A stretch of 64,000 nt of DNA from Patescibacteria group bacterium (GTDB taxonomy: Bacteria > Patescibacteriota > Minisyncoccia > UBA6257 > GWB1-50-10), in contig JASEIC010000001.1 of the NCBI GenBank assembly GCA_030017555.1, positions 2,571 through 66,570 on the forward strand. The letters are read 5' to 3'. Both the position numbers and the translations under genes were made by a program. Shown piece after piece: positions 4,233-63,068 of this stretch (positions are counted from its first letter, which is position 1; every line of letters starts with the position of its first letter). The notes beneath the pieces were generated by a model that made no database searches, had not been told where the DNA came from, and saw only the letters and a program-made list of their open reading frames with translations.

Positions 4233-4356
4233 ACATATTTCTCCTTACATGTCTTTTGAATAGAATTGAATTGTTAATTAAACTCATATAAGTATAGCAT
4301 ACTATAATGCTCATGTCAAGTTTCCAAAAAACGAGGAAAAATCTACTATATTTAAT

Positions 4357-6067: not shown

Positions 6068-8167
6068 ATGTTTGATTCTCCCTACGACCCAAAAAAACAC
6101 GAAGAAAAAATCTACAAACTTTGGGAAAACTCGGGTTATTTTAACCCGGACAACTTAATCGGTAAAAAAACTTTTATTATTTACATGCCCTTACCCAACA
6201 TAACGGGCACGCTTCATATGGGCCACGCCCTTGATAATACTCTTCCCGATATTTTAATCCGCTATTACCGAATGAAAGGAATAAAAACCTTATGGCTTCC
6301 AGGCACAGATCATGCTGGTATTGCCACCCAATATGTCGTGGAAAAGGAACTTAAGAAAAAAGGAATTTCTCGATTTGAGCTTGGTCGAGAAAAATTTATT
6401 GAAAAAGTTTGGGAATGGAAAAAAGAATACGGCAATCTTATTTTGGAACAATTGAAAAAACTCGGTATTTCAGCTGATTGGTCGCGTGTGCGATTTACGA
6501 TGGATGAGGCCTATGCGCGGGACGTAAAACGCGCATTTATTCATTACTACAAAAAAGGCTGGCTTTATCGAGGTTTACGCACTGTAAATTGGTGTCCGCG
6601 TTGCGGCACAAGCCTTTCCGAGCTTGAGCTTGAATACAAAGACGAAGAAACAAAACTTTGGCACATAAAATATCCCGGCCGAAATGGCGATGTTACCGTA
6701 GTCACCACTCGACCCGAAACAATGTTGGGCGACACCGCAGTCGCGGTAAATCCAAGAGATGCGCGTTACAAAAAATTAATCGGCAAAACCGTTACCCTCC
6801 CGATTATGAATCGCGAAATACCAATTATTGAGGATGAAATTATTGATCAAAGTTTTGGCACGGGCGCAGTTAAAGTTACGCCCGCCCATGATATTGCTGA
6901 TTTCGAAATCAGCGAACGCCACAAACTTCCAATCATTCAAGTAATTGATGAACGCGGAAAAATGACAAAAGATGCGGGAAAATACGAAGGATTAAAAGCA
7001 ATCGAAGCGCGCACAAAAATCGTGGAAGAACTTACCAGGCTTGGACTTCTTTTAAAAACCGAAAAATATTCCCACCGAGTAACTGTTTGCTACCGTTGTA
7101 ATTCAACAATTGAACCAATTCCCTCTAAGCAATGGTTTTTGAAAATGAGTGAGCTTGCAAAGATGGCGCTTGAAGCGGTAAAAAGCGGGACCGTAAAAAT
7201 CCATCCCGAAAATTTTAAAAAGCCCTATTACGCGTGGCTCGAAAATATCCGCGACTGGACCGTATCGCGGCAGATTTGGTGGGGGCATCAACTGCCGGTG
7301 TGGTTTTGTAAAAATGACCCTGAAAAATTTGAAGTAAGCGAAGAAAAATCAAAAAAATGTTTATTCTGTAATAAATGCGAAATGGAACAATCGCCGGATA
7401 TACTGGACACCTGGTTTTCATCCGCTCTTTGGCCTTTTGCCGGATTTAGAGAAAAAGATCTTAAAAATTATTATCCCGGCGATTTAGTAATGAATGCTCG
7501 AGAAATTTTAAATCTTTGGGATGCCAGAATGATTTTTTCGGGATTAGAATTTAAAGGCGAAGTTCCTTTTAAAAACGTTTTAATTCACGGCACCATTCTT
7601 ACAAAAGACGGGAAACGCATGTCAAAAAGCTTGGGTACGGGCATTGATCCATTAAAATATATTGATCAATATGGCGCGGACGCAACTCGCTTTGCTGTTA
7701 TTTGGCAAGCAAATGGCCAGGATATTCGATGGGACGAAACAGCGGTTTTAGCCGGTCGAAAATTCACAAATAAAATTTGGAACGCGGCTCGCTTCGTAAT
7801 AGAAAAAACAAAAAATGTTAAAATAAAAAATAATGCGCCGAAAGCAAAAACTGAAGCCGACAAAAAAATTCTTGAATCTCTTTCGAATATAAAAAATAGC
7901 GTCGAAAAAGATATTGAAGACCTTGAATTCAACAAAGCCCTTCACAATTTTTACGATTTTTTTTGGCATGAATTCTGTGACGTCTATCTCGAAATATCAA
8001 AAAAACAATTTGAAAGCGAAAATAAAGAGTCGACCGTACAAATTTTAAACCGTATTTTAAGCGAATCGCTTAAACTTCTTCACCCTTTTATGCCTTTTAT
8101 CACTGAACAAATTTACCAAACACTTGAAGTAAAAAATAAAAAATTGCTCTTAATCGAACCATGGTAA
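6068..8167 (+). CDS. valS: Valyl-tRNA synthetase, short form lacking the long C-terminal coiled coil
   Basis: PNITGTLHMGHALDNTLPDILIRYYRMKG...GTDHAGIATQ (HIGH region). KMSKS motif (KRMSKSLGTGIDPL). 699 aa. Confidence 0.85.
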   Translation: MFDSPYDPKKHEEKIYKLWENSGYFNPDNLIGKKTFIIYMPLPNITGTLHMGHALDNTLPDILIRYYRMKGIKTLWLPGTDHAGIATQYVVEKELKKKGISRFELGREKFIEKVWEWKKEYGNLILEQLKKLGISADWSRVRFTMDEAYARDVKRAFIHYYKKGWLYRGLRTVNWCPRCGTSLSELELEYKDEETKLWHIKYPGRNGDVTVVTTRPETMLGDTAVAVNPRDARYKKLIGKTVTLPIMNREIPIIEDEIIDQSFGTGAVKVTPAHDIADFEISERHKLPIIQVIDERGKMTKDAGKYEGLKAIEARTKIVEELTRLGLLLKTEKYSHRVTVCYRCNSTIEPIPSKQWFLKMSELAKMALEAVKSGTVKIHPENFKKPYYAWLENIRDWTVSRQIWWGHQLPVWFCKNDPEKFEVSEEKSKKCLFCNKCEMEQSPDILDTWFSSALWPFAGFREKDLKNYYPGDLVMNAREILNLWDARMIFSGLEFKGEVPFKNVLIHGTILTKDGKRMSKSLGTGIDPLKYIDQYGADATRFAVIWQANGQDIRWDETAVLAGRKFTNKIWNAARFVIEKTKNVKIKNNAPKAKTEADKKILESLSNIKNSVEKDIEDLEFNKALHNFYDFFWHEFCDVYLEISKKQFESENKESTVQILNRILSESLKLLHPFMPFITEQIYQTLEVKNKKLLLIEPW

Positions 8168-12524: not shown

Positions 12525-12827
12525 ATGATTAAAGAAAACAGCGACTTTATTTTAGCTTATTTTAAAGATGACCATGGCAGGATTTTAAGAGTGCGCATCC
12601 ATAAGCCTAATATGCTTATAAGTGTATCAGTTTTTAATGAAAAACCGCCGAGGAAAAAAGGTCCGCGAATTCGAGATATGGTTCATGTTTATTTCCCGAA
12701 AGCAACTTTTGAGGAAGTAAAAAAAGATCCTGGAATGGAACTTGGCACATTCGAAATTTTAGAAAAAGAAGCGAAAAAATGCTCAATTACCCGTAGGACA
12801 AAACGCGCCAGAAAATTTCCAGTATAA
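12525..12827 (+). CDS. Hypothetical 100-aa protein with its own consensus promoter and strong terminator
   Basis: ORF between the promoter above and hairpin terminator 12838..12885 (aaatccctcatcctttt...aaaaggatgagggattt + T-run). Confidence 0.45.
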   Translation: MIKENSDFILAYFKDDHGRILRVRIHKPNMLISVSVFNEKPPRKKGPRIRDMVHVYFPKATFEEVKKDPGMELGTFEILEKEAKKCSITRRTKRARKFPV

Positions 12828-12837
12828 ATTTTAATCA

Positions 12838-12885
12838 AATCCCTCATCCTTTTATACAAAAGGATGAGGGATTTATTTTTTCTTA
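12838..12885 (+). terminator. Intrinsic terminator (17-bp stem plus T-run)
   Basis: aaatccctcatcctttt atacaa aaaaggatgagggattt followed by attttttc. Confidence 0.7.
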
Positions 12886-12942: not shown

Positions 12943-13320
12943 TTATATGTTTTCATAGTGATTTACCGCAAAATCATCTTTATTTTTTATCAAAGCAAGC
13001 ACATCAAGCCGCCATCCCTTTTTGTCATCTACTAAATCTTTGCGATGGCCGGCGTAAAGCGATGCGGCTTTTTTGAATTTTCGTATTTTGGCCGCGGTCA
13101 TTTGATGTTCTGGTTTAAGCCCAAAATCACCTGACTCGTACATTGTTTTAACTTCCACAAAAACCAAGATGCCGTCTTTGTTTTTTGCCACAATATCAAG
13201 TTCACCCCAAGGCCGTTTAAAATTTCTCTCAATGATCCAAAATCCCTTTCCCGCAAGATACACACACGCAAAATCCTCACCGATTTTACCCAATGAAATT
13301 TTATCTGAATTATTTGACAC
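12943..13320 (-). CDS. yraN: YraN-family (UPF0102) endonuclease
   Basis: GEDFACVYLAGKGFWIIERNFKRPWGELDIVAKNKDGILVFVEVKT matches the YraN signature. Confidence 0.7.
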   Translation of the reverse strand: MSNNSDKISLGKIGEDFACVYLAGKGFWIIERNFKRPWGELDIVAKNKDGILVFVEVKTMYESGDFGLKPEHQMTAAKIRKFKKAASLYAGHRKDLVDDKKGWRLDVLALIKNKDDFAVNHYENI

Positions 13321-45208: not shown

Positions 45209-47254
45209 ATGAGTTTAAGTAGAAAAATTTTTGAGACAGAATTAAATAACGAAAAAATAAGCTTTGAAATATCAGATCTCGCAAAACAAGCAAATGCCGC
45301 AGTAATTGGCCATTACGGCGACACAGCTGTTTTAGCAGTCGTTGTTATGAGTGACAAAGAAGTTGCCGGCGATTTTTTCCCTTTAACCGTTGATTATGAA
45401 GAACGGTTTTATGCGGCTGGAAAAATTTTGGGCAGCCGTTATGTTCGCCGGGAAGGCAAATCTTCAGACGAAGCAACACTATCCGGACGATTAGTAGATA
45501 GAACTATCCGCCCGCTTTTTGACAGCCGTCTTCGCCGAGAAATCCAAATCACCCTAACTGTGCTTGCTTATGATGAAGTGCATGATCCGGATGAAATCGG
45601 ACTTTTGGCAACTTCCATTGCTTTGAGCATTTCTGACATTCCGTGGAATGGGCCAATAGGCTGTATCCGAGTTAAAAATTTTGACTCGCAAGGCAATTTC
45701 CGTTATCAGGGATTTTTTGCCGGTCCGGAATCAAAAGTAAACATGATTGAGTTTGAAGGCGTTGAAATTGAAGAAAAAGAAGCTGAAACTATTTTCCCTT
45801 TGGTCCAAAAGGAAATCAACCGTTTTGTTTCTTTTCAAAAAGAAATTATAAAACAAATTGGCAAGAAAAAAGCAAACGTAATTATTCCCGAACCAGATCA
45901 AAATCTTCGAGAAAAAATAAAAGATTTTGTTTTAAAACAAATCGAAACAGCAATAAAAAATAAAACTTTAGGAGAATTAAAAAATTTATTATTCGAACAA
46001 TTAAAGCAAAATAACGAACCTCAAGAAAATCTATTTTTTGTCGAAGGAATCTTTGAAGAAGAAATAGACGCTTATGTCCACCGCCAAATTATCGAACATA
46101 ATAATCGTCCTGATGGAAGAAAATTAGATGAAATTAGACCGCTTTATAGCGAAGTTGGACTTTTTAATCGCACTCACGGTTCTGCTCTGTTTATGAGGGG
46201 AGATACCCAAGTTCTTGCTGTAACCACCTTAGGATCTCCATCTGCCGAACAAACATTTGAAACAATGGAAGGATCGGGCAGAAAACGCTTTATGCTCCAC
46301 TATAATTTCCCGAAATTCTCAACCGGAGAAGTTGGACGATCTCGCGGTCCGGGCAGACGAGAAATTGGTCATGGCGCGCTCGCCGCAAAAACAATTGCCA
46401 ATATGCTTCCGCCAAAAGAAGAATTTCCATACACAATCAGAGTGGTAGCGGAAACACTTTCTTCAAATGGTTCGTCTTCAATGGCTTCAACCTGCGCGGC
46501 TACCCTCTCTTTAATGGACGCGGGCGTACCGCTTAAAAAACCGGTAGCGGGCATTGCTATGGGACTTATGTCAAACAAAAAAGGGGAATATAAAATTTTA
46601 ACTGATATTCAAGGACTTGAAGATCATTATGGCGATATGGATTTTAAAGTCGCGGGCACTGACAAGGGCATAACCGCAATTCAAGTAGATGTGAAAATCG
46701 AAGGTATAACAGAATCTATGTTTAAAGACTCTTTAGAAGGAGCGAAAATAGCTCGAACAAAAGTTTTAAAAGTATTAACTGATACATTAAGAGCGCCACG
46801 CAAAGAACTTTCAAAATACGCGCCAAAAATCATAACCGTAAATATTAATCCTAACCGAATCGGTGAAGTGGTTGGCCCTGGCGGCAAAGTTATAAACGGA
46901 ATTATTGCGGCGACGGAAAATAAAATAACTATTGATATTGATCAAACCGGCCAAATATTTATCGCAGGCACAGAAATGCCGCTTGTTGAAAAAGCAAAAG
47001 CTATGATAGAAGCGATCGTAAAAGAATACTCAATCGGAGAAATCGTAGAAGGTAAAATTATAAAAATTCTTGATTTCGGGGCAATTGTCGATTTGGGCGG
47101 CAAGCAAGACGGCATGCTCCACGTTTCAGAACTAAAAGAAGGCTTTGTGAAAAGAGTCGAAGACATTGTTAAACTAGGCGATAAAGTGAAAGTAAAAGTA
47201 ATTCGCGTTGATCCTGATGGCCGTATTGGTTTATCGCTAAAAAACATAAAGTAA
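45209..47254 (+). CDS. pnp: Polynucleotide phosphorylase (PNPase)
   Basis: Two RNase PH domains, KH and S1 C-terminal domains. Start set at MSLSRK (45209) rather than track start 45125, which runs through leader hairpins. Confidence 0.9.
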   Translation: MSLSRKIFETELNNEKISFEISDLAKQANAAVIGHYGDTAVLAVVVMSDKEVAGDFFPLTVDYEERFYAAGKILGSRYVRREGKSSDEATLSGRLVDRTIRPLFDSRLRREIQITLTVLAYDEVHDPDEIGLLATSIALSISDIPWNGPIGCIRVKNFDSQGNFRYQGFFAGPESKVNMIEFEGVEIEEKEAETIFPLVQKEINRFVSFQKEIIKQIGKKKANVIIPEPDQNLREKIKDFVLKQIETAIKNKTLGELKNLLFEQLKQNNEPQENLFFVEGIFEEEIDAYVHRQIIEHNNRPDGRKLDEIRPLYSEVGLFNRTHGSALFMRGDTQVLAVTTLGSPSAEQTFETMEGSGRKRFMLHYNFPKFSTGEVGRSRGPGRREIGHGALAAKTIANMLPPKEEFPYTIRVVAETLSSNGSSSMASTCAATLSLMDAGVPLKKPVAGIAMGLMSNKKGEYKILTDIQGLEDHYGDMDFKVAGTDKGITAIQVDVKIEGITESMFKDSLEGAKIARTKVLKVLTDTLRAPRKELSKYAPKIITVNINPNRIGEVVGPGGKVINGIIAATENKITIDIDQTGQIFIAGTEMPLVEKAKAMIEAIVKEYSIGEIVEGKIIKILDFGAIVDLGGKQDGMLHVSELKEGFVKRVEDIVKLGDKVKVKVIRVDPDGRIGLSLKNIK

Positions 47255-47386
47255 ATCCCTCGCCTTTCCACAGAACATTAACTCCAAAAAATGACAGGGG
47301 AGTAAAAGATTATGAAAAATTCTAGAAAGGTAAGGAATAAAAGTTTATCCACAGCTCTCTTAAATTTTTTGATGTATAATTAAAAT

Positions 47387-52357: not shown

Positions 52358-53188
52358 ATGCGACAAAAATTCGGACAGCATTTTCTTAAAAATAAAATCC
52401 AATTAAAAAAAATCGCGGATGCGCTCGAGTTAAAAGAAAATGATGCGATTATTGAAATTGGTTCGGGCCACGGAGAATTGACCTTTGAAATTATCAGTAC
52501 ATTCAAATCTTTGAACATTAATAATTTTAAAATTTTTGCGATTGAAAAAGATCCGCTTTTGGCAAAAAGATTGAGAAAAAAGATTTTGAATTTAAAGTTC
52601 ACGAACGCGATTGAAATTATAGAGGGCGACGCATTTAAAAAAATTCCTATTATTCTTGAATCCAGAATTCCACTTCATGAAAACTATAAACTTGTCGGCA
52701 ATATTCCATATTATATTACCGGTTTTTTATTCAGGTTTTTGGGCGAATTGGAACCCAAACCAAATATTATTGTTTTTACCGTCCAAAAAGAAGTGGCGGA
52801 AAGGATTGCCGCTAAACCGCCGAAAATGAACATTTTATCAGCCAGTATTTGCTATTGGAGCTTACCCAAAATCATAGATTTCATACCAAAAAAAGCTTTT
52901 TTACCAATCCCAAAAGTTGATTCAGCGATTATTAAACTGGACTGCATAAAAAATAACGCTTCTTTTTTGCGAGAAAAAGAAAATTACTATAGATTCATCA
53001 AACTCTTGTTCAAGCAACCTCGTAAAACTATTTTAAATAACGTTTTAGGAAAAAATAGAAATCTTTCGTTAATCCAAAAAGAACAAATTATAAAAAAAAT
53101 AGACAGCATCAGCATTAATCCGTTAGCCAGACCGCATAATTTGAGTATAGAAAATATTAAAAATCTAAGTCAAATATTGTATAATTAA
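52358..53188 (+). CDS. rsmA: 16S rRNA (adenine1518/1519-N6)-dimethyltransferase RsmA/KsgA
   Basis: MRQKFGQHFL...IEIGSGHGELT...NIPYYIT. Confidence 0.85.
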   Translation: MRQKFGQHFLKNKIQLKKIADALELKENDAIIEIGSGHGELTFEIISTFKSLNINNFKIFAIEKDPLLAKRLRKKILNLKFTNAIEIIEGDAFKKIPIILESRIPLHENYKLVGNIPYYITGFLFRFLGELEPKPNIIVFTVQKEVAERIAAKPPKMNILSASICYWSLPKIIDFIPKKAFLPIPKVDSAIIKLDCIKNNASFLREKENYYRFIKLLFKQPRKTILNNVLGKNRNLSLIQKEQIIKKIDSISINPLARPHNLSIENIKNLSQILYN

Positions 53189-53192
53189 TGTA

Positions 53193-53630
53193 ATGAAAAT
53201 GAAACGGAAAAAAATAATTATTTTCTCGTTTATTCTAATATCGGTTATTTTTCTTATTGCTTTGGCTGTTTTTGCAATCCCGGAACAAACAACCGCCCAG
53301 CTTTCTTCTCTTTTTATAAAACCTTTCGGCGGGAGAGTAACGATTACCAATATACCGCCTTTGATACAATGCGGGCTCAGTACAGAAGTTTTTTTAATAC
53401 TGCCAGCCGGTATTTCATCGGCCGGCCCTTTCGTTGCTTTGCCGTCAACTAAACGCTATGGCATTTGGAGCCAATTCTTCGGCGTTGCCCCTTTGCCGCC
53501 ACGCGCCATAAAAGGACTTTATACCCCTTTCGCAATCCCTTGCTTCACCAACACCGCTCCGCCAGCGCCAGCTCCGCCTCCATTTACAACAGCTTTTCCA
53601 ATTATTCTGTTTGGCACCTCGCTTTTCTGA
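53193..53630 (+). CDS. Small N-anchored Pro-rich protein (hypothetical)
   Basis: TM IIIFSFILISVIFLIALAVFA followed by a Pro-rich C-terminus. Confidence 0.4.
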   Translation: MKMKRKKIIIFSFILISVIFLIALAVFAIPEQTTAQLSSLFIKPFGGRVTITNIPPLIQCGLSTEVFLILPAGISSAGPFVALPSTKRYGIWSQFFGVAPLPPRAIKGLYTPFAIPCFTNTAPPAPAPPPFTTAFPIILFGTSLF

Positions 53631-53777
53631 AAAATGAATCCCTCACCCTCCAAAGATTGTTTAACATAAAAACAAAAAATATTCCTATGAATTACAAGCA
53701 ATTAAAAACAACAAGTTTCAAAACGCTTCTCTGGTCGCGAAGCGACTTTATCTTTGAAAGGTGAGGGATGAAATTTT
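53631..53777. mobile_element. Miniature inverted-repeat element (copy A, no ORF) of the tccctcaccc/gggtgaggga family. The right repeat provides the stop, SD and ATG of the downstream gene.
   Basis: Left aaaatgaatccctcaccctccaaagat (53631-53657) and right atctttgaaaggtgagggatgaaatttt (53750-53777) are imperfect inverted repeats around a 92-bp core with an internal gtcgcgaagcgac hairpin. Confidence 0.45.
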
Positions 53778-54577
53778 CACCAACTAAAAAATCAGCGGCT
53801 GTTATCATAATTATCACAAGCATATTTGCTTCGGTTTTTATTATTTTTTCATCGCAAACGCCTCAAGAAAAAGGTTTTTTAAAAATCTCGGCAAACTTAA
53901 ATGACGCGAATCCTTATTTAAATTTTAAAGCTCTTACAAATAACGGATTAACTGAAGCTGCAAAAAAAACCGAAAATAAAGTTTTGACTGATAATTTAAC
54001 CGATCAGCTCATCAACAATTACGGCTATGAAATTCTAAAGCGGAATCCCAGTGGCCCCTTAAACCGGGGTGGCGGACAAAGTCTGACTATGCCTTCTCAA
54101 AATCTTCTTCAAAAATTGCTGGAGGACAAATTAACGCAAAATCTCAAAATAGATTTTTATGAAATCAAAGACTTAAAAATTGGCAACGACAATTCTCTTA
54201 AAGCTGTCCGCGCTTATCTTGAAGTTTTAAACAGCGTCAATAAAAAAAATCTTTTGGTCATAAAAAAATCTCCTTTTGCGATGTTTAATGATTTTTTCCG
54301 CAAAAAAAATCCGGATCAGCTTTATCAGTATCTCGGTTTTTTATCTAGTTATACAACCGACCTTTTGAAAATTTCAGTGCCGTCTTCTTGGCAGGCATTT
54401 CATTTGGAATTATTAAACTTAGAGCAGAAAAAAATTACTATTTATCAAACCCTTGTTAATGCGGAACAAGATCCAGTCAAAGCCCTGATTGCCGCCCAAG
54501 AAATAGAAAAAATTGACCAAGAAGAACTCGATTTAGCCACGGTTTTACAAGAAAAATTAAAGGACTTAAATATTTAA
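53768..54577 (+). CDS. N-anchored membrane protein, possible VirB8/TcpC-like T4SS component (hypothetical)
   Basis: Single N-terminal TM plus a ~240-aa extracytoplasmic domain. First gene of the T4SS-like cluster. The ATG sits inside the repeat. Confidence 0.35.
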   Translation: MKFSPTKKSAAVIIIITSIFASVFIIFSSQTPQEKGFLKISANLNDANPYLNFKALTNNGLTEAAKKTENKVLTDNLTDQLINNYGYEILKRNPSGPLNRGGGQSLTMPSQNLLQKLLEDKLTQNLKIDFYEIKDLKIGNDNSLKAVRAYLEVLNSVNKKNLLVIKKSPFAMFNDFFRKKNPDQLYQYLGFLSSYTTDLLKISVPSSWQAFHLELLNLEQKKITIYQTLVNAEQDPVKALIAAQEIEKIDQEELDLATVLQEKLKDLNI

Positions 54578-54580
54578 TTT

Positions 54581-56374
54581 ATGCTAAAAACGCAAAAAAT
54601 AATTACTATTTTCCTTGTTATTTCAGTTATAACCGCCGGCTTTTTCTTTCCTTTTCAAATAAAAGAGGCTAAAGCGGACATTGCCGGTGATTTTACGAAA
54701 CATTGTGTTGGCGACTTACTTTTTGATATAGGGTTGGAGTTAGGTCTTGGTAATGTCATTACTAAAATTGAAGAATTTCTTTCGCCAGGATCAGTGCCTT
54801 CAAGTGATGCAAATACTAAAGCGGAGCTAAGAAGATTTGAGCTTAAAGAATGTTTTAGGCGCTTAAAAGATCTGGCAATTGTTGCGGCCCACAATTATTT
54901 GAAAAAACGGCTTTTAGACCGGCTTGTTGACCAGACTGTTCAATGGATTCAAAACGGCGACGAACCAAGATTTGTCAGTGACTTTGACGAATTTCTTAAA
55001 GACGCGCACCAAGCGGCCGTTGGCGATACGCTTCGCGATATTGGTTTGGCAAAATTATGCGATGGGACTTTCGGAGCAAAATTAGAGCTTACTTTGGGAA
55101 AACGCGAACCGAGAAAGCTGACCCGAGACGTTACCTGCACATTAGATCAGGTTGTAGGCAATATTAATGCTTTTCGCAATGACTTTCAAAAAGGCGGCTG
55201 GCTTGGCATTCAAGAGGCCGCAAATCCAAGAAATAATATCTTTGGTTTAAAACTCATGGTTGTGGACAGAACAATCCGAGAAATTAGTATAAAACAAGAA
55301 ACAACTAAAGCTGAAGTCGCGGCAACCGGAATTAAGCCCCAAAAAAAATGTCTTGAATACACACTACTGGACAAAAAAACAGACGCTATTCTTAGACCAG
55401 GAGACTTTCATCCAATTGGCTCTGGCGGCTCTGATATGCTTGTGGGTCTAAATCCTACACCAGCTAATGCTGACGGCACGCCGCCAAGTCTATATGATGT
55501 AGCTATTAATTCCGGCCGCGCTTATTGGCGCTGTTCTAATGAACAAATAATAACTCCGGCTAACACCATAGCCGCAATAATAGCTAAAACCGGGGGCTTA
55601 GATTATGATTATATTTTAAACAGCGAAGATGTTTCTTCTTATTTTTCAGTTATATCTGACGCATTAATCAATCGGCTTACCACTGAAACCGGCAAGGGTT
55701 TGCGCGGTCTTTTTAAAGGCGGCGGCAGTCCTTCGCGAGGCGACGCAGGGTATCGCAACACTGATTATATAGACAGTAATACCGCTACTGCAATCCAAAA
55801 CTACGAAGGCACACTTACTGAAAATTATGAACTTAGCCCTGCCACAATAACCGCCAGTAAAGATGGTATGCTTGCCGCGATTGCTAAAGCCACTTCTTCT
55901 ATTGCAAATGCAGGAATAAATCTTAATACCGCAACACCAAAAAGATTAGAATTACTTCATTTGCTTTCTAACACGGCATTGAAGCCGGGTTGGGGCCTTA
56001 TTCAATGCATAAATCATATTGCAAATGTACACTCGCCCTTCACTTATGCAAGCGATCCGCCTATTGGACCAGACGTCCAAAGCACTTATGATTCTTACAA
56101 CACAGGCGGCGCTAACGCGCAAATTATTACGTCTTTAACAAATCAAATCGCGCCGCTTAATACTTCGGCAAACACCTTAAAAACCCAGGTAACAAACGCG
56201 GTTACTTCAGCAGATATTACGGCTTTAATACCTAAAGTAAATTCGCTTCTTACTGACGCTAAAAGTCTTGAAACAAATTCTCAATCAATCTTAAACGGGT
56301 TAGTAGAATTAGTAGCAACCGCCACAAATCAACGTCGGGACTGCAATGATTTTGATAGCGAATTTGATTCATAA
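54581..56374 (+). CDS. Secreted 597-aa protein (hypothetical; possible T4SS surface/adhesin component)
   Basis: Signal peptide MLKTQKIITIFLVISVITAGFFFPFQIKEAKA. No catalytic motifs recognised. Confidence 0.45.
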   Translation: MLKTQKIITIFLVISVITAGFFFPFQIKEAKADIAGDFTKHCVGDLLFDIGLELGLGNVITKIEEFLSPGSVPSSDANTKAELRRFELKECFRRLKDLAIVAAHNYLKKRLLDRLVDQTVQWIQNGDEPRFVSDFDEFLKDAHQAAVGDTLRDIGLAKLCDGTFGAKLELTLGKREPRKLTRDVTCTLDQVVGNINAFRNDFQKGGWLGIQEAANPRNNIFGLKLMVVDRTIREISIKQETTKAEVAATGIKPQKKCLEYTLLDKKTDAILRPGDFHPIGSGGSDMLVGLNPTPANADGTPPSLYDVAINSGRAYWRCSNEQIITPANTIAAIIAKTGGLDYDYILNSEDVSSYFSVISDALINRLTTETGKGLRGLFKGGGSPSRGDAGYRNTDYIDSNTATAIQNYEGTLTENYELSPATITASKDGMLAAIAKATSSIANAGINLNTATPKRLELLHLLSNTALKPGWGLIQCINHIANVHSPFTYASDPPIGPDVQSTYDSYNTGGANAQIITSLTNQIAPLNTSANTLKTQVTNAVTSADITALIPKVNSLLTDAKSLETNSQSILNGLVELVATATNQRRDCNDFDSEFDS

Positions 56375-56380
56375 AATTCT

Positions 56381-58801
56381 ATGCGGAAACATTTAAAGAA
56401 AATCGCGTTAATATCAATCCCGATAATCATCTTAATTTCTCTTGTGCCAATACTGGCTCATAGTCAGGGCTTTTGGGAAGTTTTAAATCCAATTAACTGG
56501 ATTAAGTGGGCAATAATGGCTGTTCTTTACCTTATTTCTTATATCGGCACATTATTTTTCAGTTTGGCGGGTTATTTGGTCGGTTTCTTTTTAAAATTCA
56601 ATTATGGAATTTTAAATTCAAATAATTTAATTGACCGCGGCTGGGCAATCACAAGAGATATTGCCAATCTCGGTTTTGTTCTGGTAATCGTGATTATTGC
56701 CCTCGCTACCATCTTACGATTTCAAGAATACGGCTACAAAAAACTCTTGCCGAAACTTATCGCGGCGGCAATTCTTGTAAATTTCAGCCTGGCCATTGCC
56801 GGCGTTTTTATTGATTTTTCCCATGTTTTAACCAAACAATTTTTCAGCGCGGTTGAAAGCCCGGGCACTGATATAGTCCAAGTGCTCTCCGGCGCCTTTG
56901 AGCCGCAAAAATTTTATACCGAACCTCTTGACCCGGCTCCAATTGACCCTGAAGAAGAAGCCGGCGGCTTTGAAGGATTTACGGTTTCCGTGCTCCTTGA
57001 TATTTCAAAACTTTTATTTACGGCAATTTTTATTTTTGCCGCGGCATTTGTTCTGTTTGCTTTTGCTTTTATGCTTCTTCTCCGATATATTTATTTATCG
57101 CTTCTTTTGGTTATCGCGCCTATTGCCTGGCTTTTTTGGGTTTTTCCGGCTTTGTCGGGCCAATTTAAAAAATGGTGGAGTAAATTCCTGGAATGGGTAT
57201 TTTTCGCGCCCGTTGTCGCTTTTTTCTTTTATTTAACGCTCACTTCCATAAAAAGCTTGAATCAAAACGCTCTTTTGCCGGACGGCACGTTCTTTAAAGG
57301 CACTCTTTCTGATTTAATGGCTCAAGGCGCGAAAATGGTTTTGCTCATCGGCCTTCTTTTTGGCGGCTTAATTATTGCCCAACAAATGGGTATTACCGGC
57401 GCGGCCGGCGCCATGAAAATGGCAAACACGGTCGGCAACAAAACCAAAAAATGGGCCGGAGAGAAAATGAAAGCTGGCGGTATTGCGGCTGGCAGACGAG
57501 CTCTTACGACCGGCGCTGGCAAAGATTTGGAAGGCAAATCCGCGCTTGAAAGAGCTGGAGAAGGAGTTGGCGGCAAGCTGGCGGAGTGGGGTTCCACAAA
57601 ATGGGGCAGGCGCTTTGGCATTGGAGTCTTAAGTAAACCATTCACCGGTATTGCCGGCGCGTCAGCTCAAGCTAAAGAAAAATTAAAAGCTGAAACCGAA
57701 GCCAGAGCAAAAAAGAGAATGCCGGAATCTTCGGAACTTGCTTTAGCGCGAATGCGTCTAGAATTAAGCAAACCTGAAGCGCTTGCTGATTCAGCATCAA
57801 CTGTCGCTAGTTTTACAAAAATCGCTCAAGATAAAAAAATGTGGGGTAGCCTAACCCCGCAAGAACAAGAAAAAATGCGGGATCGCGCTATTTCCGCCGG
57901 CCGGAAAACTAATTCTCTAGATAAGGTCATAGATGCCGACAAAGCATTGCTGGATCGACCGGAAATATTACCCGACGAAAAATTACTCAAGGCTTCTCTT
58001 GACGCGCAAAAATCTCCGGACTTTGAAAATCTGCCGGATGACATAAAACAAGCTATTTATGAAGGAATAGCGAGAACAGTTTTAAAACTGCCGGATAATC
58101 TAACGGATATCGCGCCTAATATTATAAAACTGCTTGAAAATAAAGACGCCCGCGAAATCATAAGACAACGCGGCTTAGAAGACGCGCTTTACAGCAAAAT
58201 AGAAGCTTCCAATGCTACCGGAGCCGTTAATAGAAACTTGCGTATTCAAGCTGCCGCGCTAGATCCTAGCAGGTTTTTTGAAAGTCTAGGTTTTGATGCG
58301 CCAAGCATATCAAATGACGAAAAAGATGAATCAATGAAAGAAATTCTTTCCAGAGTAAAAGATCCGGCAAATCTGATAATAAATGATCTAAGCGCTCTTT
58401 CCCAAAATCAGCGCGCTATTCAAACACGCCTTGTTCAAAATTTGAGCTTTAATCTGCACAGTAAAATTGGCAGTGAAGGTTCGCCAGAACTTAAAACCAA
58501 CACTATTCACACTCTTGCAAGAGGCATTGATCAACTTACTGGCACAAATACTTTTGCTGATCTTAAAAAGTTCTCTGGTGATATTAAGGAATTTGAAGAG
58601 CAATACGAAGCCTTAAGACGAGAGAAGGGCGCAAACGATAGCTCTACTCTGGCTAAAGCTGCTCAATTCAACCAAGCCAAAACCGATCTAAAAACAGCAG
58701 AAACAAATCTTAAAAACATCTCCAAAGACGCTCATCAACTTTGGCAAGTTTATCAAAAAGATCTTAAAGACACCAATTATCAAGACGCAACTTGGCCTTA
58801 A
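56381..58801 (+). CDS. VirB6/TrbL-like polytopic membrane protein with a long C-terminal hydrophilic domain (TcpH/PrgH-type)
   Basis: ~8 N-terminal TM helices over ~330 aa, then a ~470-aa charged domain. The architecture matches Gram-positive VirB6 homologues. Confidence 0.5.
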   Translation: MRKHLKKIALISIPIIILISLVPILAHSQGFWEVLNPINWIKWAIMAVLYLISYIGTLFFSLAGYLVGFFLKFNYGILNSNNLIDRGWAITRDIANLGFVLVIVIIALATILRFQEYGYKKLLPKLIAAAILVNFSLAIAGVFIDFSHVLTKQFFSAVESPGTDIVQVLSGAFEPQKFYTEPLDPAPIDPEEEAGGFEGFTVSVLLDISKLLFTAIFIFAAAFVLFAFAFMLLLRYIYLSLLLVIAPIAWLFWVFPALSGQFKKWWSKFLEWVFFAPVVAFFFYLTLTSIKSLNQNALLPDGTFFKGTLSDLMAQGAKMVLLIGLLFGGLIIAQQMGITGAAGAMKMANTVGNKTKKWAGEKMKAGGIAAGRRALTTGAGKDLEGKSALERAGEGVGGKLAEWGSTKWGRRFGIGVLSKPFTGIAGASAQAKEKLKAETEARAKKRMPESSELALARMRLELSKPEALADSASTVASFTKIAQDKKMWGSLTPQEQEKMRDRAISAGRKTNSLDKVIDADKALLDRPEILPDEKLLKASLDAQKSPDFENLPDDIKQAIYEGIARTVLKLPDNLTDIAPNIIKLLENKDAREIIRQRGLEDALYSKIEASNATGAVNRNLRIQAAALDPSRFFESLGFDAPSISNDEKDESMKEILSRVKDPANLIINDLSALSQNQRAIQTRLVQNLSFNLHSKIGSEGSPELKTNTIHTLARGIDQLTGTNTFADLKKFSGDIKEFEEQYEALRREKGANDSSTLAKAAQFNQAKTDLKTAETNLKNISKDAHQLWQVYQKDLKDTNYQDATWP

Positions 58802-58817
58802 TTTAATTATTTAAAAT

Positions 58818-59738
58818 ATGCCAACAACACTAAAAGAGGTTCCAATAAAAATTAAAACTCATCTTGGTTCAGATGAAATTATTGGCGTTATTGACCGGTT
58901 AAACAATAATGCTCGGATTTTTGAACCGCGAACCATACCACTCATTCTTTTTAAACTTATTACCAAAATACTTGCTCCAGAAAAAATTTATGAACAAATT
59001 TTAAAAGATTTAAATTTTTCTGAAGAAAAAACAAAAGCAATTACAAGAGAGATAAAAGAAAAAATTTTAGAACCGATCAAAGACGATTTAAAAAAACGGG
59101 GAATTGATATTGATGTAATTGACACAAAAAACTCTTTACTATTTCATGATTTTCTTAAAAAAGAAAAAGAGGAACTCCAAAAATTCGGCATTTCTTTTGA
59201 AATCATTGAAGAGCCCGAACCAATAAAAAGAATTTCGCTTGATAAAATAGGCGAGGCGCCGATGGCTAAAAAAATCCCGATTGAACAAACTGAAAACTTT
59301 TTTTCAAACAAACAAGATGGTTCGCCGCTCATTATTCATCAGGTAAAACCCTTAACCGAAACAAAACCAAAAACATCAACCCCGCTTTTTTCTCTTCCTT
59401 TTAAATTTCTAAAATCAAAATTGTCTCAAAGAAACCTGGAAAAACCGGTAATGGCTCGAATTGAAACGCCTGAAAAAACCATGCCCGAACCAGAAGAAAA
59501 TCAAGCATCAAAAAGAGTTGTTCATTACAGCGGCAATCGTACCCCTTTTTCTCCCGCTGAAACACCTGATTTTATTAATTTGGAAAAATTATCGCCGGAT
59601 ATTCCCGCGCCCCCTTCTCCGCCAACGCCGAAAAAAGAAAACGCGGAGCCAAAAACTCCTCCGCCAACGCCAAAAACAACAGAAATTGACGATAAAAACA
59701 AACCCAAACTAGACGGCAACATCGTTGATTTGAGCTAA
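58818..59738 (+). CDS. Hypothetical protein with a Pro-rich C-terminus
   Basis: 306 aa. C-terminal PAPPSPPTPKKENAEPKTPPPTPK. Confidence 0.4.
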   Translation: MPTTLKEVPIKIKTHLGSDEIIGVIDRLNNNARIFEPRTIPLILFKLITKILAPEKIYEQILKDLNFSEEKTKAITREIKEKILEPIKDDLKKRGIDIDVIDTKNSLLFHDFLKKEKEELQKFGISFEIIEEPEPIKRISLDKIGEAPMAKKIPIEQTENFFSNKQDGSPLIIHQVKPLTETKPKTSTPLFSLPFKFLKSKLSQRNLEKPVMARIETPEKTMPEPEENQASKRVVHYSGNRTPFSPAETPDFINLEKLSPDIPAPPSPPTPKKENAEPKTPPPTPKTTEIDDKNKPKLDGNIVDLS

Positions 59739-59823
59739 AACACGCCCATGAATCCCGTTAGAAGCAACTAAATCATGAAACCTATAAATACTAAGCATTT
59801 ATCTGAATCAATAAAAGGGATGA

Positions 59824-60121
59824 ATCCCTCACCCTTGAAAAACTAACTGATTATGTTTTACATTTATCTACTAAAATCAAGGCTTAATAATGGTTTTTGT
59901 GTTGGGTTTACGCCTGACTTGAAATCCAGACTGCTAAAACATAATCGGGGAGATGTTTTATCAACAAAACGTTATCTGCCTCGGGAATTAATGTACTATG
60001 AAGCGTATAAATCTAAAAAAGACGCTGTCTTGCGAGAAAAACAGCTTAAACGATTCGCCAAAAGCTTTTCGATGTTAAAACGTCGACTTAAATATTCCTT
60101 GGTTTTTCAAGGGTGAGGGAT
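59824..60121. mobile_element. Inverted-repeat-bounded GIY-YIG cassette (copy B of the tccctcaccc repeat family)
   Basis: 20-bp perfect inverted repeats atccctcacccttgaaaaac (59824-59843) and gtttttcaagggtgagggat (60102-60121) bracket ORF 59853..60116. Confidence 0.5.
59853..60116 (+). CDS. GIY-YIG nuclease-domain protein (YhbQ/UPF0213-like, 87 aa)
   Basis: FYIYLLKS...GFCVGFTPDLKSRLLKHNRG...STKRYLPRELMYYEAY...REKQLK matches GIY-YIG motifs. Its stop TGA lies inside the right repeat. Confidence 0.7.
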   Translation: MFYIYLLKSRLNNGFCVGFTPDLKSRLLKHNRGDVLSTKRYLPRELMYYEAYKSKKDAVLREKQLKRFAKSFSMLKRRLKYSLVFQG

Positions 60122-60617
60122 GAACTTCCAAGTACCGCAATTTATAGACGAACAAGCCAAAATTATCGGCTTTCTTACCTTAAAACAATTTGGTTTTATT
60201 GCCGTCGCCTTCATCACGGCGCTTATTTCTTTTCATTACTTTACTTTTTCTCTTGCTCTTATTATTACCGTAATTGTTGGCGCCTTAGCCATTGCTTTGG
60301 CATTTGGCAAAGTAAACAGCCAACCGTTGCCAAAAGTGATTTTAGCTGGTTTGGGATATTTGTGGAGTCCCAGAACTTATACATGGCAGCGCGCAATGAA
60401 AGAAACCGATCTTGATATTTCCGCTTTAGAAAAATTGGAGACGACAAGAAGAAATATGAGCATTCAAGAAAAAATAAAATCCATCGCCTTATCAATTACC
60501 ACCAGTAAATTCTTGTCGCCAAAACAAATGCGAGAAAATAATGAAAAGAAAAAATACCAAGTGGTTAGTTTTTCAACTGGAGAACGCAAATTTGCCAAAC
60601 GGGTTGACTATAAATAA
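60120..60617 (+). CDS. VirB3/PrgI-like two-TM protein (putative)
   Basis: Two adjacent TM helices (FGFIAVAFITALISFHYFTFSLALIITVIVGALAIALAF), placed upstream of the VirB4-like ATPase. ATG at 60120 lies inside the repeat. Confidence 0.4.
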   Translation: MNFQVPQFIDEQAKIIGFLTLKQFGFIAVAFITALISFHYFTFSLALIITVIVGALAIALAFGKVNSQPLPKVILAGLGYLWSPRTYTWQRAMKETDLDISALEKLETTRRNMSIQEKIKSIALSITTSKFLSPKQMRENNEKKKYQVVSFSTGERKFAKRVDYK

Positions 60618-60666
60618 TAACACAAAAAATATTTAGTTCGACTATAATAAATTTAATCACACTTTC

Positions 60667-61314
60667 ATGGAACCGGCATTGCCAACTCAAAAATTCGTTG
60701 ATATAAAAAACGTCAAAGACGGCGCGGTTTATCTCAAAAATAACGGCTTACGAAAAATACTGATTGTGAGCGGCGTAAATTTTGATTTAAAATCCGAAGC
60801 CGAACAATCTTTAATCTTAAATACCTTTCAAAACATGTTAAACTCTCTGGACTTTTCAATTCAATTCTTTGTTCATTCCCGCAAAATCAACGTCGACGAA
60901 TACCTCGCAAATATGAGCACGAAAAAAGAAAAAGAACCGAACGAACTTCTCAAAATTCAAATCGAGGAATATGTCGAATTTATTCGTTCGTTTGTTCAAG
61001 AAAATTCTATTATTTCTAAAGCTTTTTTTGCTATCGTTCCTTATGACCCCCAACCGATTACTTCTCAAACACGAGGTTTTTTGAACACTTTTAAAACACT
61101 TGTTAAAAAACCAAGCACAAATAAAGTAGAAGAAGAAAATACTCAAAAAAATCTGGAACAGCTTGACCACCGAGTAAATCAAGTTATTGACGGCTTAGAA
61201 CAAATTGGACTCCGGGCAGTTCCTCTTGAAGATGATGAAATTACCGAACTTTTCTATAATCTTTATAATCCTCAACTTGTTGAAAAAAAAGGTTTAAATA
61301 TCGCAGAAAAATGA
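60667..61314 (+). CDS. Hypothetical protein; possibly the detached N-terminal domain of VirB4
   Basis: 215 aa. 4-nt ATGA overlap with the downstream 585-aa VirB4-like ORF. The combined length of ~800 aa equals a canonical VirB4. Confidence 0.35.
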   Translation: MEPALPTQKFVDIKNVKDGAVYLKNNGLRKILIVSGVNFDLKSEAEQSLILNTFQNMLNSLDFSIQFFVHSRKINVDEYLANMSTKKEKEPNELLKIQIEEYVEFIRSFVQENSIISKAFFAIVPYDPQPITSQTRGFLNTFKTLVKKPSTNKVEEENTQKNLEQLDHRVNQVIDGLEQIGLRAVPLEDDEITELFYNLYNPQLVEKKGLNIAEK

Positions 61315-63068
61315 CAAAAATTAAAATTCCACAACCTTATAAACCGAGCTCTGAAGACGTAGCAAATATTATTGCTCCGGCCGGTCTTGAAGCAAGTCCA
61401 AATTACATGAAATTGGGGGACTATTTTGTTAAAACTCTTTTTATTTTCACTTACCCGAGATATATTTCAAGCGGTTGGTTTTCTCCAATAATTAATCTCG
61501 CGGAAATGATGGATATTTCTATTTTTGTCCACCCAATGGATACGGCTTTAGCGCTTAGAAATTTAAGGAAAAAAGTCGCTCAAATTCAAGCTGAAGCAAG
61601 CGAAAGAGAAGAAAAGGGCCTTGTCCGCGATCCGATTTTAGAAACCGCTCACCAAGACATTGAAAATCTCCGCGACGCTCTCCAGCAAGCCCGGGAAAAA
61701 CTTTATAGGATCGGGGTTTACATAACAATTTACGGCAAAGGCTTGGAAGAATTAAATAAATTGGAAAATAAAATAGAAAACATGCTTGAAGCGAAACTTG
61801 TTTATATAAAACCCGCGCTCTTCCGACAACTTGAAGGTTTTGCCTCAACCCTGCCTCTTTGCCAAGATAAATTATTGATTCATACGGCTTTAAATTCCGG
61901 CCCTTCTTCTTCGCTTTTTCCTTTTGTTTCACCGGACTTAACCTCGGATAAAGGCATCCTTTACGGCGTTAATATGCACAATGCCAGTCTTATAATTTTT
62001 GACCGATTTTCTCTTGAAAACGCCAACACTGTTGTCTTTGCTAAATCCGGCGCGGGCAAATCTTATGCCACTAAACTTCAAATCCTTCGTTCTCTTATGA
62101 TCGGGACAAACGTCATTGTTATTGATCCGGAAAATGAATATCAAAACTTAGCTAACGCGATTGGCGGCAGTTATTTTAAAATTTCTCTAACCTCGCCAAA
62201 CCATGTTAATCCTTTCGACATTCCAATCAGTCCGGAGGGCGAGAAACCGGCTGATGTTTTTAAATCTCATGTTTTGAACTTAACCGGACTAGTAAAATTA
62301 ATGCTCGGCTCTATTACGCCCGAAGAAGACAGCCTTTTAGATCGGGCTATTACTGAAACTTATGCTTCTCGCGATATTACCGCTGAAACATTCGGCGCCA
62401 TAAAAGAATTAAATCCGCCCCTCTTAGAAGATCTGCAGGTTGTTCTTAAAAACACTGAAGGCGGCGCTGGCATTGCTCAACGGCTTGAGAAATTCACTCG
62501 CGGTTCTTACGCTGGTTTTACAAACGCGCCCACCAACGTTGATATAAAAAACCGGTTCATTGTTTTTTCAATAAGAGATTTGGAAGAAGAATTAAGACCC
62601 GTGGCAATGTACATAGTCTTAAATTTTGTCTGGAACTTGGTTCGGTCAGAATTAAAACAACGGCTTATGATTATTGATGAAGCTTGGTGGATGATGAAAT
62701 ACAAAGATTCGGCGGCTTTTCTTTTTGGCCTCGTGAAACGCGCCCGCAAATACTATTTGGGCATTACCACCATCACTCAAGACGTTGAAGATTTCTTGAA
62801 ATCCGATTATGGCCGGCCGATTGTCACTAATTCCTCAATCCAATTTTTGATGAAACAATCAACAACCTCCATTGGTTCGGTTGCTCAAGCTTTTGATCTT
62901 ACCGAGAGCGAAAAAACTTTTTTAGTCGAAGCCGGCGTCGGCGAAGGATTATTTTTTGCCGGCTTAAAACACGTCGCCATAAAAATTATCGCCTCCTTTA
63001 CCGAAGATCAAATTATTACCACCAATCCCGAACAAATGATTGAACTTAAAGGGCTAACTAAAAAATAA
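61311..63068 (+). CDS. VirB4/TrbE/CagE-family type IV secretion ATPase (C-terminal ATPase part)
   Basis: Walker A VVFAKSGAGKSYATKL. NPFD motif. Walker B LMIIDEAWW. RKYYLGITTITQ conserved C-terminal block. Confidence 0.7.
   Translation: MTKIKIPQPYKPSSEDVANIIAPAGLEASPNYMKLGDYFVKTLFIFTYPRYISSGWFSPIINLAEMMDISIFVHPMDTALALRNLRKKVAQIQAEASEREEKGLVRDPILETAHQDIENLRDALQQAREKLYRIGVYITIYGKGLEELNKLENKIENMLEAKLVYIKPALFRQLEGFASTLPLCQDKLLIHTALNSGPSSSLFPFVSPDLTSDKGILYGVNMHNASLIIFDRFSLENANTVVFAKSGAGKSYATKLQILRSLMIGTNVIVIDPENEYQNLANAIGGSYFKISLTSPNHVNPFDIPISPEGEKPADVFKSHVLNLTGLVKLMLGSITPEEDSLLDRAITETYASRDITAETFGAIKELNPPLLEDLQVVLKNTEGGAGIAQRLEKFTRGSYAGFTNAPTNVDIKNRFIVFSIRDLEEELRPVAMYIVLNFVWNLVRSELKQRLMIIDEAWWMMKYKDSAAFLFGLVKRARKYYLGITTITQDVEDFLKSDYGRPIVTNSSIQFLMKQSTTSIGSVAQAFDLTESEKTFLVEAGVGEGLFFAGLKHVAIKIIASFTEDQIITTNPEQMIELKGLTKK

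Follow-up and report, generated by a model that had tools for sequence, protein, structure and literature searches.

A 64,000-nt stretch of a Patescibacteria group bacterium (contig JASEIC010000001.1 of assembly GCA_030017555.1, hereafter the window) carries at 53.6 kb a short palindrome-ended unit, here called the mini, directly in front of the first gene of a cluster resembling a type IV secretion system (T4SS). The mini is an inserted copy of a small element with palindromic ends, placed on the start codon of that gene. About 6 kb further downstream, arms of the same type bracket a gene for a small GIY-YIG nuclease; we refer to this unit as the cassette. The best overall explanation, and in our judgement a probable one, is that the mini is a non-autonomous member of the same family as the cassette, comparable to miniature inverted-repeat transposable elements (MITEs) and to REPINs, the hairpin-forming doublets of repetitive extragenic palindromes (REPs).

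An inverted-repeat search over positions 53000-61000 of the window ranked the arms of the mini first: 53628-53657 and 53750-53779 form the longest inverted repeat of this interval (30 nt, 83% complementary, 92 nt apart), and the arms of the cassette came second in quality (23 nt, 96% complementary). In the mini, 20 bp form a well-paired core, 53638-53657 pairing with 53750-53769 apart from two C/A mismatches, and the arms start with ATCCCTCACCC and end with GGGTGAGGGAT. At 132 bp (~130 bp) overall and with 20-bp terminal inverted repeats the mini has the size and the termini of a MITE, and like a MITE it holds no transposase gene, only an open reading frame (ORF) of 25 codons without similarity to the GIY-YIG gene. 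The outer 12-mer ATCCCTCACCCT is common to the arms of the mini and those that bracket the GIY-YIG gene. The original prediction had described the inverted pair with 92 nt between its arms, a core shared with the GIY-YIG cassette and a small hairpin between the arms, and all of these were recovered.

The motif search proposed in that prediction, carried out on the window with TGAATCCCTCACCCT at ≤3 mismatches, gave 7 matches where 0.67 were expected, a number reached by 0 of 100 shuffles. Four of the matches are the arms of the mini and the cassette, two form a hairpin at 12836-12875, and the last stands alone at 47252. In the 64 kb there are a single mini, a single cassette and a single stem-only hairpin. 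Folded as RNA, the segment 53625-53785 reaches -40.4 kcal/mol (z = -5.9 against shuffles). In an AT-rich genome with many weak repeats one could suspect a chance palindrome or, as the original prediction had cautioned, a general motif found close to Shine-Dalgarno (SD) sequences. The excess of matches, the empty orthologous site described below and the scarcity of SD-like motifs refute this, and the fold also speaks against it. An SD-like motif (GGAG, GAGG or AGGA within 22 nt upstream) precedes 4 of the 33 long ATG-initiated ORFs in the window, and none of the other genes has the motif of the mini. We give chance practically no weight.

That the mini is an insertion is seen from related genomes. 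Neither the GIY-YIG protein of the window nor the 269-aa protein encoded downstream of the mini has an exact-protein match on record, and homologs were used instead; those of the 269-aa gene led to two syntenic loci, L206 and L207. The neighbouring proteins of L207 are ~65% identical to those of the window, in the gene order KsgA-like, 138-aa and 259-aa with a 1-nt gap. Here the mini junction is uninterrupted: the stop TAA is followed after 1 nt by ATGAAATT, the sequence reading ...TTTTTTAAAATGAAATTAAAAG. This empty site (L207:7636-7655) is TTTTAAAATGAAATTAAAAG with a single ATGAA, whereas the filled site in the window and L206 reads AAAATGAA-T-CCCTCACCC...GGGTGAGGG-ATGAA-A(T). Since L207 has one ATGAA where the window and L206 have two, the mini is an insertion with a 5-bp target duplication. 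This direct duplication, which the original prediction had proposed to look for, includes the start codon and, as expected for a MITE, is recognized against an empty site. The ATG at 53768 had been ascribed to the element; it is instead the target's own start codon, duplicated at 53634-53638. The cassette junction of L207 is empty as well (TAA, 11 nt, then ATGAATTTCC / ATGAATTTCCAAG) and is filled in L206. Both junctions are thus empty in L207 and both are filled in the window and L206. In the window a copy of ATGAA stands on either side of the cassette, at 59820-59824 and 60120-60124. The coordinates of the features are collected in Table 1.

Table 1. Features of the mini, its neighbours and its relatives in the 64-kb window.
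Feature	Position	Strand	Remarks
Upstream gene	53193..53630	+	145 aa, membrane-like; stop TGA 53628-53630; from ORF list
Left copy of duplicated target ATGAA, orphaned start codon	53634..53638	+	From comparison of empty and filled sites
Mini left arm ATCCCTCACCCTCCAAAGAT	53638..53657	+	Outer 12 nt identical to left arm of GIY-YIG cassette
Mini interior, AT-rich, 92 nt	53658..53749	+	86% identical to L206 interior; no similarity to GIY-YIG cassette DNA
Mini internal ORF, 25 codons (MNYKQLKTTSFKTLLWSRSDFIFER, then stop)	53687..53764	+	Stop TGA 53762-53764 in right arm, 3 nt before downstream ATG
Small G+C-rich hairpin GTCGCGAAGCGAC (GTCGC-GAA-GCGAC)	53734..53746	+	3 nt before right arm
Mini right arm ATCTTTGAAAGGTGAGGGAT	53750..53769	+	Holds stop of mini ORF; abuts start codon
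Right copy of duplicated target ATGAA, functional start of downstream gene	53768..53772	+	N-terminus MK(F/Y/L) kept in L206 and L207
Downstream gene, 269 aa, first of T4SS-like cluster	53768..54577	+	From ORF list; orthologs in L206 and L207
Companion cassette	59824..60121	+	Left arm 59824-59846, ORF 59853-60116, right arm 60099-60121; ~6 kb downstream of mini
Stem-only relative, 17-bp perfect hairpin AAATCCCTCATCCTTTT / AAAAGGATGAGGGATTT, 6-nt loop	12836..12875		Arms each 1 mismatch from ATCCCTCACCCT

A second and independent case was found from the GIY-YIG homologs P0003 and P0005 (loci L001 and L004). Both loci have the same operon, encoding an aminoacyl-tRNA synthetase, MreB, MreC, a protein x, a penicillin-binding protein (PBP) and GreA. 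The cassette lies between MreC and x in L001 and between the synthetase and MreB in L004, each genome being empty where the other is filled. L004 furthermore has a mini between PBP and GreA, the arms of which are nearly identical to those in the window (TCCCTCACCCTTCAAAGAT...ATCTTTGAAGGGTGAGGGA), and the same junction in L001 is without a mini and reads AAAATAATGAAAAG (TAATG).

Two further observations concern the cassette junctions. At L004:9970-9990 the synthetase ORF runs into the left arm of the cassette and stops on a TAA inside it (...IIIPHP-stop), which indicates that the insertion replaced the original C-terminal codons and stop. In the window, the 85-nt spacer from the 306-aa gene to the left arm of the cassette (59739-59823) is 94% identical to that of L206 and absent from L207, where the spacer has 11 nt. 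Its segment 59754-59819 sits between two copies of ATGAAT (59748-59753 and 59820-59825) and starts with CCCGTTAGAAG, as do the left arms of another arm class. An insertion that hit the same ATGAA target earlier may have left this segment behind. A decayed second mini was also considered for it and is unsupported, as the segment has no fold (z = -1.2) and no partner arm.

The insertion is common to the window and L206, with two arm mismatches in the window and perfect arms in L206. Between these two genomes the mini is 88.7% identical (86% in the interior), compared with a DNA identity of 66-74% for the flanking genes and of 54% at their 4-fold degenerate sites (binomial p = 7e-11). The identity rises exactly at the borders of the element, and the flanks next to it are 52-66% identical. 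From these comparisons, arrival or replacement of the mini at the same junction after the hosts had diverged, by site-selective horizontal spread, is favoured over constraint on its sequence, because minis at other loci have unrelated interiors. Strong constraint or a locus-specific host function could nevertheless account for the high conservation, and this counts against a purely mobile element. The earlier statement that the insertions are not recent agrees with the two arm mismatches and the sharing with L206; the 89% identity of the mini against 54% at the 4-fold sites of the flanking genes does not fit it.

The same figures could result from homing-type spread, in which the nuclease would cut empty alleles and repair would copy the element from the filled allele of a relative, new loci being rare. 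Homing would explain why the window and L206 have the same mini at one and the same junction, with sharp borders, the GIY-YIG fold is a classical homing-endonuclease fold, and ribosomal RNA (rRNA) insertions in the Candidate Phyla Radiation (CPR) are known to carry GIY-YIG ORFs (Tsurumaki et al., 2024, PMC11270868). The protein itself fits less well. The ORF 59853-60116 (87 aa) matches Pfam GIY-YIG at 1.1e-11 with residues 1-69 covered, i.e., the whole protein is catalytic domain, and no sequence-specific DNA-binding domain of the kind found in I-TevI-type homing endonucleases was seen in its 87 aa. No NCBIfam model names it, and the group I intron endonuclease model (grpIintron_endo) matches at E = 0.003, below the cut-off and for a homolog only. 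The closest solved relatives of the family profile are the UPF0213 proteins 1zg2 (1.9e-9) and 1ywl and the SLX1 structure-specific endonucleases, which places the cassette nuclease, judged from its sequence, in the Slx1/UPF0213 branch and not with the I-TevI type. This minimal branch has been described as mostly vertically inherited and probably repair-related, unlike the selfish UvrC-like lineage (Dunin-Horkawicz et al., PMC1564403). Moreover, homing needs no inverted repeats and leaves no target duplication, the flanks beside the element show no co-conversion tract, and the elements occur at many unrelated junctions. We consider homing improbable.

These other junctions came from a metagenome scan with the pattern CCCTCACCYT-N(90-120)-ARGGTGAGGG, which returned at least 120 stretches. 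Among the matches listed, AT-rich minis of the CPR type were L092, L104, L134, L136, L173 and L199, which together with those of L004 and the window makes eight minis. In 8/8 the ATG of a long downstream ORF comes directly after GGGTGAGGG, a regularity that the original prediction had proposed to check, and the stop of the upstream ORF lies 1-12 nt before the core of the mini (TAA-T-CCC in 5/8). The junctions are unrelated and include TsaE|ValRS, membrane protein|PilB-like ATPase, M23 peptidase|Mur ligase and unknown|FtsW. The minis of L004 and L134 can be aligned over their whole length and lie at different loci. A hairpin resembling the small G+C-rich one of the window is found in the same place in the minis of L136, L092 and L004. 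The larger part of the scan matches (L086-L205), from numerous soil and water metagenomes, consists of nested G+C-rich palindromes, CCCTCACCCTnnCCCTCTCCCC...GGGGAGAGGGnnAGGGTGAGGG.

Pairing in the 20-bp stem holds for 97% of the cells of a nine-mini alignment, with 6 pairs changed on both sides and none on one side only; the outer ten arm positions were set by the search pattern, which makes their invariance uninformative. It is the inner arm positions that covary, and arm pairing is preserved by compensatory changes. The types of mismatch in the arms are symmetric (15 GU-type and 18 AC-type on the sense strand), which fits a palindrome acting at the level of DNA. Selection on an RNA stem of the sense strand in place of a DNA palindrome was considered and is unsupported by these counts and by the absence of one-sided changes, a point against the coupling of translation proposed below.

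The strong predicted stem also raises the question of whether the mini could serve the host as a regulatory RNA structure (for instance an RNase III site, a translational operator or an element that stabilises the T4SS-like operon) and not be primarily mobile. Conservation between the window and L206 far above the neutral level would suit such a role, as would the resemblance of the relative at 12836-12875 to an intrinsic terminator and the presence of related arm pairs inside rRNA genes, where the stems of intervening sequences are substrates of RNase III. On the other hand, L207 has no mini at the same junction, the same type of element stands before unrelated genes with unrelated interiors, the arms show no tolerance of G-U pairs, and a target duplication is present. 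In Rfam no family was found for the window region (the window has three tRNAs only), the other minis, the cassettes or the G+C-rich palindromes, nor was a ribozyme core of a group I or II intron or an IStron. A promoter scan of 53300-54000 gave no site. A terminator scan around the mini gave only the small internal hairpin, at chance frequency, and the start codon follows directly after the stem, unlike in an intrinsic terminator. The mini lies between two protein genes and not in an rRNA helix, and is therefore no rRNA intervening sequence. A primarily regulatory role appears very unlikely to us.

The cassette has many relatives. A scan of one genome per GTDB species located genes for relatives of the nuclease at no fewer than 554 loci, and in 47 of ~84 GIY-YIG homolog loci examined, from many phyla, clear inverted repeats of 12-28 bp tightly bracket the ORF. 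Their arms fall into the classes CCCTCACC, CCCCACACC, CCCGTTAGA, CCCGTAGAG and others. Arm class tracks the phylogeny of the protein, with 60% identity within and 48% between classes (0/2000 permutations as extreme). Like the minis, which stand in sense orientation between a stop and the next start, the cassettes are co-oriented with their close neighbours (28 vs 3 upstream, 28 vs 2 downstream). In the vicinity of 11/47 loci there are additional ORF-less pairs or hairpins bearing the 12-mer of the respective cassette, ~5x the rate in other loci.

Cassettes also lie next to or within RNA genes. Cassettes directly 5' of tRNA genes were found at L010:4250-4337 (Ala), L028:4260-4362 (Ser) and L054:4249-4336 (Pro). 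In all three, the first 4-6 nt of the tRNA are also part of the right arm, and an 8-10-nt copy of the arm end and tRNA 5' end stands to the left of the left arm; this copy corresponds to the ATGAA duplication seen at protein genes. A Microgenomates 23S rRNA gene of 4.8 kb (L008:3162-7977) contains a GIY-YIG cassette at 3963-4267 with the arms CCCCTCACCATTTC / GAAATGGTGAGGGG. The same gene also holds a group I intron at 7266-7545 and, at 7801-7880 in the helix-98 region, a pair CCCTCACC...GGTGAGGG. A pair like this last one lies just after the 16S 3' end in L101.

Within the window, the hairpin at 12836-12875 is followed by a T-run and lies between the convergent ORFs 12525-12827 (+) and 12943-13320 (-). 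Its sequence suggests an arms-only member of the family that acts as a terminator. Bare hairpins resembling it were seen near the cassettes of L046 and L060. The solo arm-like site TAAATCCCTCGCCTT at 47252-47266 comes directly after a stop codon, with no complementary partner seen nearby.

Whether the GIY-YIG protein mobilises the mini and the cassette is a separate question, for which we put the chances at about even, by analogy with known pairs of repeat and enzyme. Several points weigh against it, and against kinship of the mini with the resident cassette. To our knowledge, GIY-YIG enzymes are hydrolytic nucleases with no strand-transfer or DNA-joining activity, so that the possible autonomous partner at 59824-60121, while it has the same outer 12-mer, encodes a nuclease not known to transpose DNA. 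A 5-bp target duplication is more typical of DDE transposases. The apparent size of the duplication differs by copy, being 5-6 bp in many (ATGAA, ATGGA, TAATG) and only AT in the minis of the type TAAT...ATG. The nuclease of the window reads GFCVGF where at least 90% of its relatives read YIGF, with Cys at residue 16 for the Tyr of YIG, and may thus be catalytically impaired or inactive. An nhmmer profile of six cassette interiors found no match to cassette DNA in mini interiors on either strand, and a derivation by internal deletion can therefore not be demonstrated; three minis hold ATGTTTA(C/T), which resembles the GIY-YIG start ATGTTTTAC. Finally, the subterminal arm sequence of the mini is CAAAGAT compared with GAAAAAC in the resident cassette, and by this subterminus the window mini is nearer to the minis of other genomes than to its neighbour. 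As regards the original prediction, the mobile family is upheld by the empty and filled sites, the ATGAA duplication and the occurrence in other genomes; for the mini as a derivative of the ORF-bearing copy, the arms are the evidence.

Several of these points would also be expected if the arm-bounded units were MITE-like and moved by a transposase encoded elsewhere in the genome, the GIY-YIG gene being cargo or a helper that cuts empty sites. A 5-6 bp duplication, enzymes not known to join DNA, a mini interior without similarity to the cassette and a nuclease without the YIG tyrosine all speak for such an enzyme. It is difficult to reconcile with the way in which the class of inverted repeat co-varies with the GIY-YIG clade across phyla, with the GIY-YIG ORF always being the sole gene between the arms, and with ORF-less pairs that carry the 12-mer of the neighbouring cassette. 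No transposase gene adjoins any locus read. We regard mobilisation by another enzyme as unlikely, although less so than homing.

How a start codon can be hit without harm to the downstream gene may be connected with the internal ORF. The interior of the mini had been taken for non-coding, but the ATG at 53687 opens the ORF given in Table 1, and ATG ORFs of 24-29 codons that end in or at the right arm are present in 8/9 minis, five of which use the same TGA (combined shuffle p ~4e-4, with one mini counted per homologous pair). The GIY-YIG ORF likewise has its stop TGA inside the right arm, in the same position as the stop of the mini ORF. In L206 the orphan left ATGAA, read from the sequence, opens one frame that crosses the whole mini and at its end overlaps the real start (ATGA). 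The right arm had been thought to supply stop, SD sequence and ATG to the next gene. The TGA is indeed in the arm, and the ATG belongs to the target. The SD sequence is doubtful: the GAGGG of the right arm abuts the downstream ATG instead of lying 5-9 nt before it, SD-like motifs precede only 4 of the 33 long genes, and the mini does not have the character of an SD-supplying leader. With SD-like motifs at the low frequency given above, translation in this organism seems to be largely SD-independent, and in such an SD-poor genome a structured G-rich leader would need to be opened.

A mechanism that would connect these findings is as follows. The GIY-YIG nuclease would recognise the outer arm sequence, the hairpin or cruciform formed by the arms, or both, and would promote the copying of arm-bounded units, with the mini as its passenger in the way that REPINs are passengers of RAYTs (REP-associated tyrosine transposases) or MITEs of a transposase. 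The elements would persist only where they are harmless, i.e., exactly where two cistrons meet, behind the stop of the first and ahead of the start of the second, and in sense orientation, and would be transcribed as part of the operon. In the operon transcript of an SD-independent organism the 20-bp stem would bury the downstream start. The internal ORF, either the GIY-YIG gene or the ~25-codon ORF of the minis, would run into the right arm and stop 3 nt before the downstream ATG, and ribosomes on it could unfold the stem and pass on to the next gene through translational coupling. Such coupling through the internal ORF seems to us about as probable as its absence.

A broader and more tentative proposal, which we hold somewhat less likely than either of these parts, is that nucleases of the Slx1/UPF0213 type are the engine of a widespread and undescribed class of prokaryotic mobile elements, a GIY-YIG counterpart of REPIN-RAYT. 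Such a class may consist of a ~290-bp cassette with inverted repeats of 13-28 bp, minis and stem-only hairpins, all with the same arms. It may insert at the first bases of genes, namely start codons, tRNA 5' ends and rRNA helices, and its elements may render themselves harmless by means of an internal ORF through which translational coupling is restored.

The REPIN/RAYT systems share several features with the elements described here. Both have short palindromes, which occur as doublets with long hairpins (as in the minis) or singly as hairpins; both have a small nuclease gene bracketed by the same palindromic repeats in inverted orientation, repeats that are also dispersed elsewhere; and in both the units lie in transcribed intergenic spots, some of them terminator-like (12836-12875). 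They differ in that the gene is here a GIY-YIG gene (Slx1/UPF0213-like) and not an HUH/Y1 (IS200/IS605-like) transposase, in that the arms are unrelated to the REP consensus, and in the insertion at stop/start junctions with a duplication that includes the start codon. REPIN/RAYT systems also reach high copy numbers per genome; the 64 kb covered here show a single mini, cassette and stem-only hairpin, and related minis lie in other genomes.

Correia/NEMIS elements of Neisseria, ERIC/IRU, RUP and the Rickettsia palindromic elements resemble the mini in length (~100-150 bp), in terminal repeats of ~20-26 bp and in a short duplication. Further traits in common are co-transcription with the neighbouring genes, a stem that RNase III could cut, and presence or absence between relatives. 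Those elements have no sequence similarity to the mini and lack its strict position rule (ATG directly after the right arm) and its conserved small ORF ending in the right arm, and the putative autonomous partner encodes in our case a GIY-YIG nuclease, not a DDE transposase. Free-standing GIY-YIG homing genes, such as phage T4 seg and those like I-TevI, have in common with the cassette the fold, the location between host genes and possibly the site-selective spread. The cassette is set apart from them by a protein of 87 aa without a DNA-binding domain and of the Slx1/UPF0213 branch, and by bracketing inverted repeats, duplication and ORF-less companions.

The CPR rRNA insertions with GIY-YIG ORFs, which according to the passages devoted to them are neither group I or II introns nor homing-like (Tsurumaki et al., 2024, PMC11270868), have the same protein family and arm type as the elements here, as seen from the cassette within the 23S gene of L008; the mini differs from them by its location in a protein-coding operon. 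Those passages make no mention of inverted repeats, ORF-less companions or insertions at operon junctions. The boxC/TMECO repeats are enterobacterial intrastrand-triplex repeats (Holder et al., 2015, PMC4666352). Like the arms described here they have the decamer AGGGTGAGGG and an asymmetry of pyrimidine-rich and purine-rich arms, and they too form inverted pairs in intergenic regions. An enzyme that mobilises them is not known. They are however G+C-rich, contain an extra CCCTCTCCCC/GGGGAGAGGG module that enables the triplex and follow no junction rule. The G+C-rich matches of the metagenome scan are inverted pairs of this boxC/TMECO type, and no GIY-YIG gene was found near such pairs among the 120 matches listed.

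Our literature search found no description of Slx1-like GIY-YIG cassettes bracketed by inverted repeats, with ORF-less companions at operon junctions, or of GIY-YIG-linked bacterial MITEs, although a failure to find one does not establish novelty. Both the mini and the cassette seem to be members of a widespread and apparently undescribed family of small mobile elements that insert between the genes of operons. If this is correct, it would give a role to the very large family of "hypothetical" GIY-YIG proteins of 80-100 aa (at least 554 loci among the GTDB species representatives) and would newly tie a class of nucleases to bacterial MITE- and REP-like repeats. It would also explain the non-intron insertions with GIY-YIG genes in CPR rRNA genes and perhaps orphan repeats such as boxC/TMECO. 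It would show how a selfish insert can be tolerated in the tightly packed operons of minimal genomes, by hitting a start codon, duplicating it and carrying an ORF that ends at the next start. Annotation is affected through orphan ATGs, upstream ORFs extended into the left arm (as in L004) and false SD look-alikes.

Concerning the neighbouring genes, the upstream 145-aa protein has a weak ABC2_membrane_4 match, and its orthologs are 139 aa (L206) and 138 aa (L207). Downstream, the T4SS-like cluster encodes PrgI-like and VirB4/TraC-like proteins (Pfam). The VirB4/TraC-like ATPase consists of two overlapping ORFs, 60667-61314 (215 aa) and 61311-63068 (585 aa). As L207 has the same split (217 + 585 aa), it is a conserved arrangement and not a frameshift error.

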